Origin: a virus | Length of the DNA: 64,000 bases | Strand: one strand, 5' to 3' | Virus record (IMG/VR): IMGVR_UViG_3300024180_000005 | Coordinates: 1-64,000 of that record | In this document: positions 2,195 through 36,625 of the stretch, in pieces | Layout: each line of letters starts with the position of its first letter | Position numbering within the stretch: the stretch's first letter is position 1 | Made by a program: the position numbers and the translations under genes | Notes under the pieces: model-generated | What the model saw: only the letters and a program-made list of their open reading frames with translations | Databases searched by the model: none | Told to the model about the DNA's origin: nothing

Positions 2195-2746
2195 ATGAAG
2201 ATTAGAAAATTTATAGAGTTCATAACAGAAGAATTGAATGATACTCCAGAGTCTTATATAGAGACTGCATTAAAGCAACTACAAAATAAGATAGGAAAGA
2301 TGTTTGAGGATCAAATAGAAATGGAAGATGAAAGAGAGGGTAATATTTCCATAGAAGATGCGAAGTCAAATTCAAAAGGTAAAAAAATTAGTTTTAAGGA
2401 TTTAGGAGTTCAATTGGAAAGTTCTGAGATATCTAAATATTCAAAATTATATGACTCACTTACTATAAAATTTAGTGATAGTAATTCAACATATAACATG
2501 TTACTTTTAATAGATTTAAAAGATGCGATGCCAAAGGATCCAGATAAAGATTTCTCATATAAAGATATCGAATCTTGTTTCATTAAGTTTAAAAAGTATG
2601 ATTTACAAACATTTGAGGTTATAGGGCAAATGACAAAGAATGTTAAGATTAAAGATATCGATGAAGAATTTTTAGTGGATCTTAAAATTGAACTTGATGA
2701 AGATTTTAGTGATGATGATGAAAAACTTGAAATAGAGACTGAATAA
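2195..2746 (+). CDS. Acidic hypothetical protein with CTS-like N-terminus (MKIRKFIEFITEE)
   Basis: ORF, late box, downstream terminator. Confidence 0.75.
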   Translation: MKIRKFIEFITEELNDTPESYIETALKQLQNKIGKMFEDQIEMEDEREGNISIEDAKSNSKGKKISFKDLGVQLESSEISKYSKLYDSLTIKFSDSNSTYNMLLLIDLKDAMPKDPDKDFSYKDIESCFIKFKKYDLQTFEVIGQMTKNVKIKDIDEEFLVDLKIELDEDFSDDDEKLEIETE

Positions 2747-2772
2747 AAACGACATAATTGTCGTTTTTTTTT
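2745..2772. terminator. Intrinsic terminator
   Basis: AAAAACGACA-taat-TGTCGTTTTT plus T-run. Confidence 0.75.
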
Positions 2773-2805
2773 GTTAGGAAACTAAATATTAATAATAAAT
2801 AGTAT

Positions 2806-3312
2806 ATGAGTGTAAATATAGTAACAAATTTTCAAATAATAAATAAAATAAAAAAATCTAGATATTTTAGAACTAATCTAGGTTTAGTAGCAACTGTTGA
2901 TAAAAATGGTTCTAGAAAGTATAATGATAAAGATTCTTTCTCAATGTTCTATAACTCACTTTATAACACTATAATATATGCACAGGGTAATATAGGTAAT
3001 ATAAAATTCTATACCGACCATTTCATACGTGATGAAGTTATGGCAGTTTATTTTGGAGATAACTTTGAAGAGTTTATATTCGATTGGGATGAAACTATTT
3101 TCAAAGAAAAAGGTATGGATTTTTATCTCGGACATATATTAAAAGAGGTTGAAACTAAATATGAGGAAAAATTATTAAAGGATGATTTAAAGAAAATTGA
3201 AGAAAAACCATTAGGTAATCCTGATTTAATATCACAGAACCCTGGTTCTGTATCATATGCTGACATACAGGCATATTTAGAAAAGAAAAGAAAAGAGAGG
3301 TATTCAGGTTAA
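2806..3312 (+). CDS. Hypothetical protein
   Basis: 168-aa ORF; TAATAAATA 4 nt upstream (2793-2801). Confidence 0.75.
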   Translation: MSVNIVTNFQIINKIKKSRYFRTNLGLVATVDKNGSRKYNDKDSFSMFYNSLYNTIIYAQGNIGNIKFYTDHFIRDEVMAVYFGDNFEEFIFDWDETIFKEKGMDFYLGHILKEVETKYEEKLLKDDLKKIEEKPLGNPDLISQNPGSVSYADIQAYLEKKRKERYSG

Positions 3313-24443: not shown

Positions 24444-25223
24444 ATGATACTTAGATACGAACAACTTAATGAAAATAAGATGTGGTACAAAACAATACCA
24501 CAGATATTAGAATGGATAGATTCAAAATCTGACCTTTATTGGATTTGGATAGACACAGAAACAACTGGCATAGGAGGTCCGAAAAAAGAACAACTTACAC
24601 AAGTTTCCGCAATAGTTACTAACTACAACTTCAATAATAATTCATTCAATGAGGTTGATACTTTTGATAGAAAGATCAAACTAACATCGGATATAAAATC
24701 TAGATATGATATACCTGGTGATAATAGTAGAAGAATTTTAAGTTTTAATCACTATGGATCTGGCGGTTACAAATATGAAGAAGAAAGTGAAGTCGTTTAT
24801 GATTTCTTCAAATGGATAGAAGATTATTCACCTTGTTTAGGTATTGCACAAAATGCGAGTTTTGATATGAATATGTTAGCAGGTAGATCCGATAATAAAA
24901 TAAAATTTGAAGTATTCGATACTAAGATGTTGATTCAATTATATTATTTACCACTTTTACAAAAACTGGGAGAAACTGACTCTAAATATTCAGAAATTGT
25001 AAGTTCTATAGGAACTTCAACAAGAGATAATGGATTGATTTCTTCTTCTATGGCGAAGATTGGTCCGGCACTTGGTCTAAGTATGGATAACTATCATGAT
25101 GCGATTACAGATTGTAGAATCACTATTGAGATGTATAGAAAGATTGTTGATTTTTTAAAAGAGAATAAACATATCGATATAAGCAAATATCAAAACGATA
25201 GAATCAGAACAATAAGAAAATGA
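24444..25223 (+). CDS. DEDDh (DnaQ-like) 3'-5' exonuclease with CTS-like N-terminus
   Basis: DTETTG, AQNASFD, DT, HDAITD; late box 24431-24439. Confidence 0.88.
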   Translation: MILRYEQLNENKMWYKTIPQILEWIDSKSDLYWIWIDTETTGIGGPKKEQLTQVSAIVTNYNFNNNSFNEVDTFDRKIKLTSDIKSRYDIPGDNSRRILSFNHYGSGGYKYEEESEVVYDFFKWIEDYSPCLGIAQNASFDMNMLAGRSDNKIKFEVFDTKMLIQLYYLPLLQKLGETDSKYSEIVSSIGTSTRDNGLISSSMAKIGPALGLSMDNYHDAITDCRITIEMYRKIVDFLKENKHIDISKYQNDRIRTIRK

Positions 25224-25290
25224 AATACCTAAGATATAATGATGCTAGAGAAACTTTGATAGACAAGAAGTACAAAACTTAATATCATAA

Positions 25291-25323
25291 ATAAAGCCGG
25301 TCGAGTGACCGGCTTTATTTTTT
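25291..25323. terminator. Intrinsic terminator
   Basis: ATAAAGCCGGTC-gagt-GACCGGCTTTAT-TTTT. Confidence 0.8.
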
Positions 25324-25388
25324 CGTTTATACTAATCAGAAACCATCTTCAAGAGTCAGTAAATATCTCTTTTCTTTACGTTCATAGT

Positions 25389-25703
25389 TTAGTAAAAAAT
25401 ATATTTTTCATCTTCTTTGATACAATAGATTGAGATTGGGTAGATTCTCAACTCATCATTACTTTCATCCACTATAAACCTCATAGAACCATCTATGATA
25501 TCTGTGTTTACAATTTTAATTGTTGCGTGATGTAATCCTTTCAGAACTGAATAGGTGATGTCGTCTAATTCTTCAGTAAGAACCATATAGTTATCCTTTC
25601 CTTGTATCTTACCGGATAATCCATCGATAAAGTAAGCCTTTTCTATAATCTCTCTAAGTGAATCTGTTGCAGAACACTCTACTTTAATTTCATGTTTTAC
25701 CAT
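25389..25703 (-). CDS. Hypothetical protein
   Basis: 104-aa ORF. Confidence 0.7.
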   Translation of the reverse strand: MVKHEIKVECSATDSLREIIEKAYFIDGLSGKIQGKDNYMVLTEELDDITYSVLKGLHHATIKIVNTDIIDGSMRFIVDESNDELRIYPISIYCIKEDEKYIFY

Positions 25704-25767
25704 TTCTTTTTATTTAGTTATTAAAAAATTTTATTTGAAATATTTATATTGATAAAATATATAAAGT

Positions 25768-25977
25768 TTAATTATGATAAACAATATTTATAGACGTTAT
25801 ATCTTCAATAGTAAAATTTACTATCTCTTTGAATAGTTCAAAACCTGTAAGACTCTCATAGTCATTTTGATTTTTGTTTATCTTTTTTATGATTGGGATA
25901 AGAGAATTTATCTGTTTGTGTGTAACCTCAATCTTTTCGCGACTATCTTCTGTATCTATTACTAAAAAACCTCTCAT
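25768..25977 (-). CDS. Hypothetical protein
   Basis: 69-aa ORF. Confidence 0.6.
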   Translation of the reverse strand: MRGFLVIDTEDSREKIEVTHKQINSLIPIIKKINKNQNDYESLTGFELFKEIVNFTIEDITSINIVYHN

Positions 25978-26013
25978 ATAAGTTCTTATTTTTTCTTATA
26001 TATAAGTTTTTTC

Positions 26014-26377
26014 TTACACCAATATATTTTTTATTTCTTCAGAACCATCAGGATTCGCTGAATGTATTACGTATTCTGGAAATTTAGTTTTTCTTTCATT
26101 ACAATAACTTAACAGAAACTTAACACAATCTAATCCAGTATAAACTCTTCCTTCATCGATATCAAACCATTCTTCAATAGGCAAACTTTCTTTAAGTTCT
26201 GCGACATCTGCCAAGTCATAATCGAATGCAACTAAATCAGGAACACCATTTTCTTCTATCCATTTTATGAACTGACCATAAGAACGTACAATGGAATATA
26301 CGAAAATCCGTTATTTGCCACATATATGTAGCACAATCTCTGGGAATTCGCCAATCGTCTAAAAATAACCTTTTCAT
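26014..26377 (-). pseudogene. Frameshifted cyclic-phosphate-processing receiver-like (cREC) protein, paralog of 58397-58816
   Basis: MKRLFLDDWRIP... changes frame near 26290 into IVRSYGQFIKWIEENGVPDLVAFDYDL...TGLDCVKFL...IHSANP; TATGTTTG box 26382-26389. Confidence 0.75.
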
Positions 26378-26409
26378 ATTACAAACATACGGACAAATTT
26401 TAATATATA

Positions 26410-26500
26410 TAGTATAATCCGACTTAGGACCGGATATAGATTACGCCCCACGGGTACTATATGAAAACCACTGAATTCGCTCCTCGGTGGTTTTCTTTTT
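26410..26500 (+). ncRNA. Candidate ~90-nt structured non-coding RNA
   Basis: TAATATATA at 26401-26409, GC-rich hairpins, 12-bp terminal stem plus T-run, no plausible ORF. Confidence 0.55.
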
Positions 26501-28235
26501 AGAGAATAATTTCAAATTTAATCTGACCACAATCAAATATTTTATAGGCACCAAAATTATCCTCCATTATCTTTGATTCTGAAAGGTTTTTATCATATCC
26601 CATTTTTATCAATTTTGATTTTTTCCATTTTTGTTTATTTGATCTTTTTTTATCAATTAAGTATGAGTAGTTTGGATAACTAGTACTTTTAACATAAAAT
26701 CCCAATTTATAATATAAATCACCTATTGACCAAGAAACATCAGAGAAGGATATAATCCTTTTTACATCATAATTTTTAATGAAATATTTCATTAGTCTGG
26801 ATGCACCACCTATAACATTAATATTTTTTTTATTACAAAACCTTGATAAGTTCCACTCATCACTCAACATGCTTTTCCTACCCTCGAAATGATCAAATGT
26901 CATTAAACTAACCAACTCATCATCGTAATATAAACCAATTTTCTTAGAGGCTGATGTATAACCTTGTATATGATTCTCATCTAGAAATTCTCTATACTCA
27001 CTTATATCTATAACCTCTTTTATAATACATTTTCTGGCATATATTTTATTTTTAGTTAGACCTAACCAATTTGTGATTTGTGATTTTATAATATCCTTTT
27101 TAAGATTCCAATCATCTTCCCAAATATGAATTATTCTAATTTCTCTTTCTTTAAAGTATTTGGTTTTATCAAGGTGGTAGTTTTTATCTTTAAATAATTC
27201 AGAGTGCCAATAAAGACCATTAAATTCAAATCCTATTTTCAAATCAGGTAAATAAATATCTATTTCCAAACCATCCCTATAACTCTGAATTATTTCACCA
27301 TCATATATACCTTTTATATAATCTAAAATTTCAATTTCTTTAAATGATGATGTTTTATTGACCGGATAACAAATTGTACATTGTTTATTATCTAGTTTAA
27401 GTCTTGAGTGATATAAATGTGAATTTGTTTCATAATAATGATCATTTTCTACACACTTAATTAGGTGTTTACCCTTACCTAAGTATTTAAAATAGTTTTT
27501 ATCACTATTTAAATTTGTTTTTATACTAGATGATCTATATTTTTCAAAAATGAGTTCTCTATATTTTTCAGATTTAGTGAAATTATCAACACCATATTTT
27601 TCTAAATTGGTTTTCTTTATTCTTTTGATAAAATCTTCGGTTTTAGTATAACTATCAAAACCGTATTTTTTATTTGAAGTTTCTTTTATTTTATTTTTAA
27701 TAATTTCTGATTTGAATGGATTATCGACTCCGTAATTTTCAAATGTTGTTTTCACCTTTTTCTTTTTAACACTTTCAATCTTTGATATATTATCAACACC
27801 ATATTTTTCAATACATGTTTCTTTGTATTTTAAATTTATTGATTCATAATCTAAATTTTCTTTTGATTTTGATATCTTATCTTTAACAGTATCTAGAATT
27901 GACGTATTTTCAACACCATATTTTTCTAAATTATTTTTCTTATAATTATATAATTTTTTATCTTTTAAAATAGGATCATTATTTGAACAAGATTTTGAAC
28001 AATATTCTCTATAACCTCTTTTATATGATAAAAATTTAACATCACCATCACAGACTTTACAAGTAGGTTTATTATTTTTAATTAAATATACTTTCTCTGA
28101 AATTGAATCACCTGGACATTTATCTAAAAAAGAATATAAATTATTTAAGTTTTTAGATACCCATTGCTCTTTAACCGAATTTAATTCTATTTTAGATAAA
28201 TATATTTCATATTCTTTTTTAACTATTTCATTCAT
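26499..28235 (-). CDS. Homing-endonuclease-like (Hef-type) protein: Zn ribbon, KYG repeats, PD-(D/E)XK/Vsr-like domain, C-terminal GNAT-like domain
   Basis: CKVC/YCSKSC, five xYG repeats, EIDIYLPDLKIGFEFNGLYWHS, NHIQG...LSRFC...GGASRL; start likely 28235 (TTATATATA 4 nt upstream). Confidence 0.8.
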   Translation of the reverse strand: MNEIVKKEYEIYLSKIELNSVKEQWVSKNLNNLYSFLDKCPGDSISEKVYLIKNNKPTCKVCDGDVKFLSYKRGYREYCSKSCSNNDPILKDKKLYNYKKNNLEKYGVENTSILDTVKDKISKSKENLDYESINLKYKETCIEKYGVDNISKIESVKKKKVKTTFENYGVDNPFKSEIIKNKIKETSNKKYGFDSYTKTEDFIKRIKKTNLEKYGVDNFTKSEKYRELIFEKYRSSSIKTNLNSDKNYFKYLGKGKHLIKCVENDHYYETNSHLYHSRLKLDNKQCTICYPVNKTSSFKEIEILDYIKGIYDGEIIQSYRDGLEIDIYLPDLKIGFEFNGLYWHSELFKDKNYHLDKTKYFKEREIRIIHIWEDDWNLKKDIIKSQITNWLGLTKNKIYARKCIIKEVIDISEYREFLDENHIQGYTSASKKIGLYYDDELVSLMTFDHFEGRKSMLSDEWNLSRFCNKKNINVIGGASRLMKYFIKNYDVKRIISFSDVSWSIGDLYYKLGFYVKSTSYPNYSYLIDKKRSNKQKWKKSKLIKMGYDKNLSESKIMEDNFGAYKIFDCGQIKFEIIL

Positions 28236-28356
28236 ATTGTATATATAAGCCATAACATCTCTCCTATAAAAGAAAGCCAGTATTGTTTAATATAATTTAA
28301 CATTAAAATAATAAACAAATAAGTTAAAAAAATATATATAACTTAAATAAAAATTT

Positions 28357-29322
28357 ATGGAAAATACAGAGAACATATTAAAAGAAAACCCGGGAAGATT
28401 CGTTCTATTCCCTATTGAACACAATGACATCTGGGAAATGTATAAAACTGCGGAACATTCATTTTGGACTGCAGAAGAGATTGATTTAGCACAGGACTTA
28501 ACAGACTGGGATAATAAACTTAATGATGATGAAAGACACTACATTAAAAATGTATTGGCATTTTTTGCAGCATCGGATGGAATCGTAAATGAGAATTTGG
28601 CAGAAAATTTTGTTAAAGAGGTTCAATATGCAGAAGCGAAAAGTTTTTATGGTTTCCAAATTGCAATGGAGAATGTTCATTCTGAGACTTACTCTCTTTT
28701 AATTGATACCTATATTAAAGATGAAAAAGAAAAGGATCATTTATTCAATGCAATCGATACTGTTCCTTCTGTTAAGAAGAAAGCTGATTGGGCACTTAAA
28801 TGGATTGAATCAGAATCATTTGCAGAGCGTTTAATCGCTTTCGCAGCGGTAGAAGGTATCTTCTTCTCAGGATCATTCTGTTCTATCTTCTGGTTGAAGA
28901 AAAGAGGTTTGATGCCAGGATTAGCTTTCTCAAATGAGTTGATTTCAAGAGATGAAGGTTTACATTGTGAGTTTGCTTGTTTATTACATAACAAACACAT
29001 AGTAAATAAAGTTTCTCAAGAAAGAATTACTCAGATCATTACGGAAGCGGTTGAGATTGAAAAAGAGTTCGTAACAGATTCTTTACCGGTATCACTTATT
29101 GGTATGAATGCAAAGTTGATGCAACAATACATTGAGTTCGTTGCCGACTATTGGTTAAGTGAGTTAGGTTGTCAAAAGGTTTATAACACCGAAAATCCAT
29201 TCGATTTTATGGATATGCTTTCTTTACAAAATAAGAGCAATTTTTTTGAAAAAAGAGTTTCTGAATACCAAAAAACATCAGATAAGAATATCGACTTTGA
29301 TAATATGGATGATGACTTTTAA
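28357..29322 (+). CDS. nrdB: Ribonucleotide reductase class Ia beta subunit
   Basis: [55 protein letters not shown]. Confidence 0.97.
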
Positions 29323-36557: not shown

Positions 36558-36625
36558 GCAGTGTTAGCATAAGTAATGCGCTATACTACCAGTATAGAGA
36601 TTCTGTTCAAATCAGAACACTTGCT
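36558..36625 (+). tRNA. Degenerate tRNA-Gly-like element, anticodon ACC
   Basis: D arm GCAT/ATGC, anticodon arm CTATA-CTACCAG-TATAG, T arm TCTG-TTCAAAT-CAGA, acceptor GCAGTGT/ACACTTGC with a bulge, discriminator T, then CTA. Confidence 0.6.

Follow-up and report, generated by a model that had tools for sequence, protein, structure and literature searches.

A predicted small structured RNA of uncultured phages with complementarity to the helix 69 region of 23S rRNA

Genes and signals around the intergenic island

The window analysed here is a stretch of 64,000 nt that is part of an 80-kb virus record (IMG/VR IMGVR_UViG_3300024180_000005), and it has a G+C content of about 28%. Two of its minus-strand genes, encoding a cREC_REC protein and a homing endonuclease, are separated by a 121-nt gap that contains an island with a G+C content of 43%. 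An earlier reading made from the letters alone (the sequence-only reading) had noted here a GC-rich island, a box at 26401-26409 with no ATG at +4, three hairpins, and a U-run, all of which were found again at the same positions.

The divergent neighbour of the island is the cREC_REC gene (cyclic-phosphate processing receiver; 26014-26377, minus strand; Pfam PF20274, E = 3.6e-7 in the downstream frame), whose domain is linked to RNA repair. Three-frame translation indicates that in the window the reading frame shifts by +1 at about 26300-26315, where a TTTT run lies, and that this splits the gene; in contigs L005 and L008 it is intact as a 125-aa ORF, and the frameshifted copy may represent either a pseudogene or an error of assembly. 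A TATGTTTG box (26382-26389, minus strand; form TAnnTTTG) lies 4 nt before the cREC ATG and is conserved in L005, L008, L024, and L026. It resembles the -7 promoter element of the Bacteroidota and may act as one. Its distance from the ATG is the same as in the TAATATATA-N4-ATG arrangement described below and, because the two spacings are equal, both types of signal may yield leaderless mRNAs. A strong terminator is also present at 25289-25320 (plus strand), downstream of an RNase T-like exonuclease gene, and weak Rfam matches to STnc430 and Thr leader at 25212-25402 correspond to this terminator only.

On the other side of the island is a gene for a 584-aa homing endonuclease of the Hef-like/DUF7487 type (26499-28253, minus strand; Pfam DUF7487, E = 2.7e-22), and its DNA matches annotated Hef-like homing endonucleases of Campylobacter phages. 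Its stop codon abuts the third hairpin of the island, and it sits between the RNA gene described here and nrdB, which encodes the ribonucleotide reductase small chain (28357-29322, plus strand; Pfam Ribonuc_red_sm, E = 1.7e-116). In relatives, the RNA gene is followed in synteny by nrdB, and nrdB carries a box of its own, placed after the RNA gene's terminator. The sole tRNA gene in the window lies at 36558-36624 (plus strand) and was called by ARAGORN as tRNA-Gly with the anticodon ACC, which is odd for Gly.

The promoter-like box of the island, TTTTAATATATA (26398-26409, plus strand), has the core TAATATATA at 26401-26409. The window contains 19 copies of this core where 6.8 are expected, a count reached by none of 100 shuffles, and in 14 of these 19 copies it stands exactly 4 nt ahead of an ATG. 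The copy in the island is perfect and is followed by TAGT-ATA, such that ATA replaces the ATG of the genes. At least 12 distinct relatives have this box ahead of the RNA with unchanged spacing. The box is a putative phage promoter, which the sequence-only reading had supposed to be a late one. The retained spacing supports the proposal of the sequence-only reading that the island is an unannotated noncoding RNA gene of about 90 nt with its own promoter-like box and terminator.

The RNA is predicted to start at A26414, which corresponds to the A of the ATG behind other copies of the box, and its 3' end is placed within the U-run. The predicted transcript (26414-26500, plus strand) would thus be about 85 nt long (85-90 nt); covariance model score, fold energy, and single copy number all point to it. 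The 87-nt RNA from A26414 folds at -25 kcal/mol (z = -3.45), which was matched by none of 200 shuffles. At the 3' end, a 12-bp stem containing G+C pairs is followed directly by UUUUU (TTTTT at 26496-26500, plus strand, read from the sequence), the arrangement of an intrinsic terminator, and at least four T residues follow hairpin 3 in 77 of the 133 family members among the matches listed. Hairpin 3 is absent from the list returned by a terminator consensus scan of the window; its loop of 9 nt is probably too long for the tool, which allows up to 8. Contigs from four seawater metatranscriptome runs cover cREC (25959-26394) and the endonuclease and not 26395-26598; as contigs from standard libraries lose small structured RNAs, this gap is uninformative. 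Seawater contigs match the cREC and endonuclease genes (25700-27300) at an identity of at least 99%, which indicates that the sampled water contained the phage; since these libraries may include DNA carry-over, transcription is not implied.

Covarying hairpins and the RNA family

Hairpin 1 (P1; 26417-26435, plus strand) has the stem ATCCG/CGGAT and the loop ACUUAGGAC, within which CUUAGGAC is conserved. P1 is weak in the fold of the single sequence and is supported mainly by the family alignment, in which its pairs covary (CG to AU or UA, GC to CG) and 95.8% of the cells are paired; in relatives, an extra covarying hairpin (P1a) is inserted into loop 1. Hairpin 2 (P2; 26434-26462, plus strand) has the outer stem AUAUAG/CUAUAU and a GCCC-CAC-GGGU cap at 26445-26455. 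Its outer stem shows a compensatory change from UAUAG/CUAUA to UGUAG/CUACA, and the GCCC/GGGU cap is swapped for a short loop in other members. Hairpin 3 (P3; 26463-26495, plus strand) has a 12-bp stem (26463-26474/26484-26495) and doubles as the terminator hairpin. Compensatory change was found in 5 of its 11 pairs in the close set. Among the matches listed (133 members), the top 6 nt of the P3 stem occur in 64 distinct forms that are 77-99% paired and include all Watson-Crick pair types, and the loop is unchanged despite this. The three hairpins had been drawn in the sequence-only reading, and their conservation and covariation hold; the drawing itself does not hold entirely, since hairpins 1 and 2 as first drawn overlap at 26434-26435.

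A covariance model (R1) was built from nine close members with the window sequence left out, and it finds the window element at 71.5 bits (E = 2e-15). Pattern scans yielded about 27 close members, and pair statistics were obtained on 24 of them aligned to the model, so that the alignment is model-fitted. In these 24 members, 95.5% of the pair cells are standard-paired, a share that falls to 52% or less on sliding the 3' partners, and compensatory change is present in 15 of 30 pairs; the observed values were reached by none of 500 shuffles. A covariation analysis of homologs, which the sequence-only reading had proposed, therefore came out in favour of its hairpins. P1, P2, and P3 were also recovered independently by RNAalifold, with 10 compensatory pairs. 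The element is a structured RNA, and members of its family differ from each other by whole modules. In contrast, a loop-loop contact proposed earlier between AGGA in loop 1 and UCCU at hairpin 3 is not upheld: among the matches listed, 105 of 120 have UACU and the AGGA is unchanged, with no covariation between the two.

Comparison of syntenic viral contigs, located with the cREC protein as the query, separates the RNA from the endonuclease. In L005/L014 and L008/L013 the order is cREC (minus), RNA (plus), and nrdB (plus), with the RNA oriented towards nrdB and the endonuclease absent. Therefore, the endonuclease gene of the window is an insertion, and hairpin 3 is more than the terminator of a convergent gene. 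P3 and the U-run would end the predicted plus-strand transcript. The sequence-only reading had named the lack of both a transcript and conservation of hairpins 1 and 2, with hairpin 3 left as just the endonuclease terminator, as grounds for abandoning the RNA; instead, hairpins 1-3 are conserved and covary, and relatives exist that do not carry the endonuclease. A different endonuclease gene, of the HNH type, lies on the opposite side of the element in L017/L019/L023. Its coordinates in L017 are 2493-3056 (plus strand), and an HNH gene also flanks the element in L155. Homing-endonuclease genes of various types seem to settle next to the conserved RNA gene, and such an assortment beside one island fits the strong conservation of that island.

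The family extends well beyond these contigs. A relaxed pattern that keeps only the invariant blocks (UUAGGACC, then AAUUCGCUNCU) matches at least 120 loci in viral contigs (97 distinct among those listed), and a narrower pattern matches 26 metagenome loci. Among the viral loci are some in which hairpins 1 and 2 look quite different and some that lack the U-run. The UUAGGACC block, located at 26424-26431 in the window, is present in all members, which were selected by search patterns that contain it. A first structure pattern based on hairpins 1 and 2 was discarded, as it gave only chance matches in G+C-rich phages. The element occurs once in the 80-kb record and once in each of five phage genomes of 296-385 kb that are 93-100% complete. 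Additionally, a profile search found one member in LR756502.1, a published genome of a huge phage, where it precedes nrdB by about 1.4 kb. Most other members lie 7-31 nt downstream of an ORF on the same strand, and a comparison of the neighbouring genes of members found no gene family consistently linked to the RNA. Expression signals vary as well, from the TAATATATA-N4-ATG arrangement of the window to the TTGACA/TATACT promoters and AGGAG ribosome-binding site that come after other members. Hairpin-3-like terminators with the same loop also occur alone, in L043 (4052-4105, minus strand), about 50 nt after a full RNA, and in L048 (352-420, minus strand), behind a coding region.

The element belongs to a large, single-copy phage RNA family that is uncatalogued. 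An Rfam 15 cmscan of positions 25000-28000, a check that the sequence-only reading had suggested, returned no family for the element at E up to 10, and a scan of the loci of 13 other members returned none at E up to 1. Known self-cleaving ribozymes were rejected, as neither scan gave a ribozyme match at these thresholds. Nothing in the analysis pointed to the decoy, antitoxin, or packaging roles that the sequence-only reading had offered. ARAGORN finds no tRNA or tmRNA at the element, in agreement with the earlier remark that it is not a tRNA cloverleaf. Likenesses to the K-turn, T-loop, SRP, sarcin-ricin loop, and tracrRNA were dismissed because defining bases are missing. BLAST of the window RNA and three other members against GenBank phage records gave nothing or terminator-like noise. 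The family pattern is absent from the cultured phages KVP40, nt-1, HTVC008M, S-PM2, and P-SSM2, and the covariance model found no member in the Tenacibaculum phages pT24 and Larrie. The RNA is also missing from the complete 360-kb genome of a close relative (G001). Given its absence from this genome and from several cultured phages, it is dispensable for many phages. The searchable papers, queried by sequence and by topic, do not describe the RNA family.

Complementarity of the invariant blocks to 23S rRNA

The main feature of the element was missed by the sequence-only reading, namely its complementarity to 23S rRNA. Each of the two invariant blocks is the reverse complement of one of two neighbouring 23S segments that are universally conserved. 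E. coli numbering is assumed for the 23S molecule and was cross-checked against the offsets of Rfam matches and the anchor position of an operon scan.

Block A complements 23S positions of about 1909-1930, comprising the loop and 3' strand of helix 69 together with CCUAAGG, as indicated by RNAduplex and by the family consensus; for the window copy (26423-26446, plus strand) the span is about 1909-1929, with CUAAG. This consensus is (CC)UUAGGACC(GUUAUAGUU), also given as (CC)UUAGGACC(G-UAUAGUU), and it lies between hairpins 1 and 2. In the window, 26423-26432 is a perfect 10-nt match to 23S 1920-1929, and UAUAG and UUACG continue the match past small bulges. When 26422-26447 was scanned with RNAduplex against a whole 16S-23S-5S operon, the best duplex was at 23S 1907-1930, with an energy of -29.8 kcal/mol; the background for block A duplexes has a mean of -10.2 and an sd of 3.6 kcal/mol (1637 windows, one rrn operon).

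Block B (26474-26484, plus strand) is the invariant 11-nt loop AAUUCGCUCCU of hairpin 3 (consensus AAUUCGCUNCU), identified from the family loops and a duplex scan. Its variants end in ..ACU (105/120), ..CCU (13/120), or ..GCU (2/120) among the matches listed, and the window carries the C variant. The block complements 23S at about 1929-1940 (GGUAGCGAAAUU, the unpaired junction to helix 70/71), with one bulged A and a G.U pair at the end. With the A variant of the loop, three of four rrn-containing loci have their best site at 23S 1929-1938 (-12.8 kcal/mol). The C variant of the window reaches only -11.2 kcal/mol at the 23S site, ranks 68-137, and has a C.U mismatch at U1931. Because its loop is the weak C variant, only block A argues strongly for pairing in this particular copy. 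A fragment of helix 68 (AGCAGCGAAUU, about 1877-1887) was considered as a loop target and rejected, since it fits the rare G variant only and is not universal.

The likeness to rRNA is also seen when bacterial genomes are searched. The two-block pattern, applied to one genome per prokaryote species, gave at least 120 matches, and most of the bacterial matches listed have a fixed length of 52 nt, come from many phyla, and correspond to 23S rRNA genes read in reverse complement. For L188 and L195, Rfam assigns the match to LSU rRNA on the opposite strand, and the L195 match is at about 1879-1930 of its 23S gene. The matched 23S region (about 1909-1940) comprises helix 69, the CCUAAGGUAGCGAAAUUCC that comes after it, and the recognition site of I-CeuI (PMC2790883, PMC7104398). 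The pattern fixes only 8 + 10 bases, and the majority bases that it leaves unforced agree with antisense 23S, namely CC before UUAGGACC and G-UA--GUU after it. Similarly, among the matches listed, 105 of 120 loops read ..GCUACU, compared with GCUACC in antisense 23S. Some of the long forms (L070, L080, L083, L104, L121, and L175) read CUACC-UUAGGACC, which is contiguous antisense of 23S 1921-1933, so that in these the first block overlaps the target of the loop in the same RNA.

The blocks are predicted to be more exposed than other parts of the RNA, and the target is physically plausible. At the level of secondary structure, 23S 1924-1944 is largely unpaired in the Rfam LSU consensus. The predicted mean unpaired probability across the family is 0.56-0.60 for block A, 0.72 for the loop, and 0.40 elsewhere, and for the window RNA the corresponding predicted values are 0.70-0.80, 0.83, and 0.44. 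Duplex folding of the whole RNA against the rrn operon was uninformative, with shuffles scoring equally, and hence the scans were carried out block by block. Sites complementary to the loop or to UUAGGACC inside the window occur at chance level, and a 9-nt match within cREC was rejected as a target because it is not conserved in L005 or L008.

Possible roles of the RNA

The reading that we favour, with a probability of roughly 0.55, is that 26414 to about 26498 (plus strand) is an independent sRNA gene whose product acts in trans by base-pairing with host 23S rRNA. As judged from sequence and predicted structure, the RNA probably pairs with the large ribosomal RNA of the host during phage infection. 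The phage's own promoter box of the TAATATATA type would drive the RNA, and hairpin 3 with its U-run would terminate it. The RNA may then pair with nascent 23S rRNA or with free 50S subunits, where the intersubunit face is exposed, with the loop of block B making a kissing-type first contact and block A subsequently invading helix 69. Pairing could keep 50S subunits from maturing or the subunits from joining, tag the rRNA for cleavage, or shield or re-tune ribosomes. An invariant target is the favoured explanation for blocks that are invariant across phages with very different expression signals. A wider proposal, to which we give slightly less than even odds, is that the family is a universal anti-ribosome RNA of many uncultured phages of different host phyla, present in single copy, that would dock on the helix 69-70 face of 23S rRNA and control assembly, joining, or rRNA breakdown in the infected cell. 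In this proposal the RNA may supply ribonucleotides to the phage ribonucleotide reductase, whose genes are often beside it. No natural phage RNA is so far known to target rRNA, and this one would be the first.

Several considerations bear on whether such pairing is feasible. An anti-helix-69 PNA inhibits the growth of E. coli (Kulik 2017, as cited in PMC7038079), and MazF-mt6 reaches the UU^CCU of helix/loop 70 in free 50S and not in 70S (PMC5408214). Against pairing, the order of the blocks is permuted with respect to a simple antisense RNA, with the 5' block matching the 5' part of the target, so that the complex would have to branch for both blocks to bind at once. Some of block A lies within P1 and P2 and would have to be opened, and in the mature 70S ribosome helix 69 is base-paired and bound by protein and the other subunit. 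Additionally, there are thousands of ribosomes to titrate, for which the RNA would have to be very abundant. The likeness to 23S could also stem by descent from a captured rDNA fragment.

Descent of this kind is part of an alternative that we consider unlikely, in which the element is a protein-binding or self-contained structural RNA (an RNP component, a sponge, or a decoy), a phage or host protein or a tertiary fold uses the invariant bases, and the 23S likeness is captured rDNA ancestry or a functional coincidence. An 11-nt loop that stays invariant as its stem covaries freely is a pattern also typical of protein-recognition hairpins, and the occurrence of hairpin 3 alone in L043 (as a second copy) and L048, the poor pairing of the window loop variant with 23S, and the permuted blocks all fit such an RNA. 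However, the neighbours of members differ widely and no protein gene is consistently linked, and it is hard to explain in this way why two blocks, together with unselected flanks, match adjacent segments of one rRNA region. Without selection, blocks of rDNA ancestry would not stay invariant over such diverse phages. A cis-acting role is considerably less probable still, whether as an nrdB attenuator or leader, as a terminator or insulator at the end of an operon, or as a stabiliser or processing site of a 3' end. The exact single copy per genome of about 300-385 kb speaks against it, whereas terminators and processing sites recur, and the downstream genes are unrelated among members, with the next gene convergent in L018 and L020. 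It is true that the element is upstream of nrdB in the group of the window, behind genes for the ribonucleotide reductase large subunit in L076, L117, L186, and L187, and directly after a same-strand ORF in most members. It is also true that P3 has the form of a terminator in 77 of the 133 members among the matches listed and, as the convergent endonuclease gene of the window has its stop codon right against it, may end that transcript too. Yet nrdB has its own box past the terminator, no alternative antiterminator pairing was found, and a mere terminator needs neither an invariant loop nor the UUAGGACC block. As for a riboswitch or nrdB leader, members share no constant class of downstream gene, and the Rfam scans described above gave no riboswitch match.

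Two further explanations do not invoke a functional noncoding RNA. The correspondence of the matched rRNA stretch to the I-CeuI recognition site (PMC2790883, PMC7104398) raises the question of whether the island is a DNA-level site, namely an rDNA-like homing-endonuclease site (TAACTATAACGGTCCTAAGGTAGCGA, of the I-CeuI type), a recombination hot spot, or a replication signal. The element does have endonuclease genes beside it, Hef-like in the window and HNH in L017 and L155, and a single copy would suit an origin or site. Nevertheless, the half-sites are separated and permuted, such that no intact site exists, and stem covariation, U-runs, and a fixed promoter box indicate RNA. Most members have no endonuclease gene beside them, and the genes that do occur differ in family and in side, which is what mere targeting of a conserved island would produce; we hold a DNA-level site to be very improbable. 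Least credible, to the point of being nearly dismissed, is a tiny leaderless ORF of 14-16 codons that begins with ATA or ATG 4 nt after the box. An ATG stands at the exact position of a leaderless gene in L005, L024, and L026, and in the window the ATA is followed by 15 more codons and a TGA; however, both the window and L008 have ATA instead of ATG. A 1-nt indel (window compared with L024) and a 14-nt insertion (L008) shift the frame with the nucleotides conserved, and conservation tracks base pairs rather than codons.

If the RNA does pair with 23S rRNA, it would give phages a direct RNA-RNA route to the most conserved intersubunit bridge of the ribosome, which was found in no searchable paper or RNA catalogue. 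Since all bacteria have an identical target, the same short RNA would work in any host, which would explain its spread over unrelated phages. It would also offer a natural starting point for inhibiting ribosomes broadly by antisense, and a means of studying 50S assembly. Even without pairing, a widespread, single-copy, and strongly covarying RNA that is absent from Rfam deserves a model and a name.

Loop-presenting antisense RNAs and trans-acting base-pairing sRNAs such as CopA/CopT, RNA I/RNA II, the lambda oop RNA, and Hfq-type sRNAs are likewise short and combine variable stems with conserved seeds exposed in a loop or linker; their own promoter and intrinsic terminator would correspond to the promoter-like box and the terminator hairpin of the phage RNA. 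The phage RNA also has exposed, conserved seeds complementary to its predicted target, with a strong block A and a weak loop in the window. In contrast to these RNAs, which act on an mRNA or a plasmid primer, its predicted target is the rRNA core, its seed is identical across host phyla, and its two seeds are permuted with respect to the target. Two exposed segments that read adjacent targets in the same 5'-to-3' order resemble the way in which EBS2 and EBS1 of group II introns read a contiguous IBS2-IBS1; the analogy is one of geometry only, as the phage RNA is about 85 nt long and has no intron, reverse transcriptase, or catalytic domains. Small RNAs that act through complementarity to conserved rRNA include the box C/D and H/ACA guide RNAs of archaea and eukaryotes (snoRNAs) and ribosome-associated ncRNAs. 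Unlike snoRNAs, the phage RNA has no C/D or H/ACA boxes, no genes for partner proteins were found, and its setting is that of bacteria and phages, and membership in these classes is not claimed. The closest precedent in terms of the target is that of synthetic anti-helix-69 oligomers, which, according to Kulik et al. (2017) as cited in PMC7038079, reach the same helix with a complementary strand and inhibit growth. Those PNAs are man-made, whereas the phage RNA would be a natural counterpart and carries a second block against 1929-1940.
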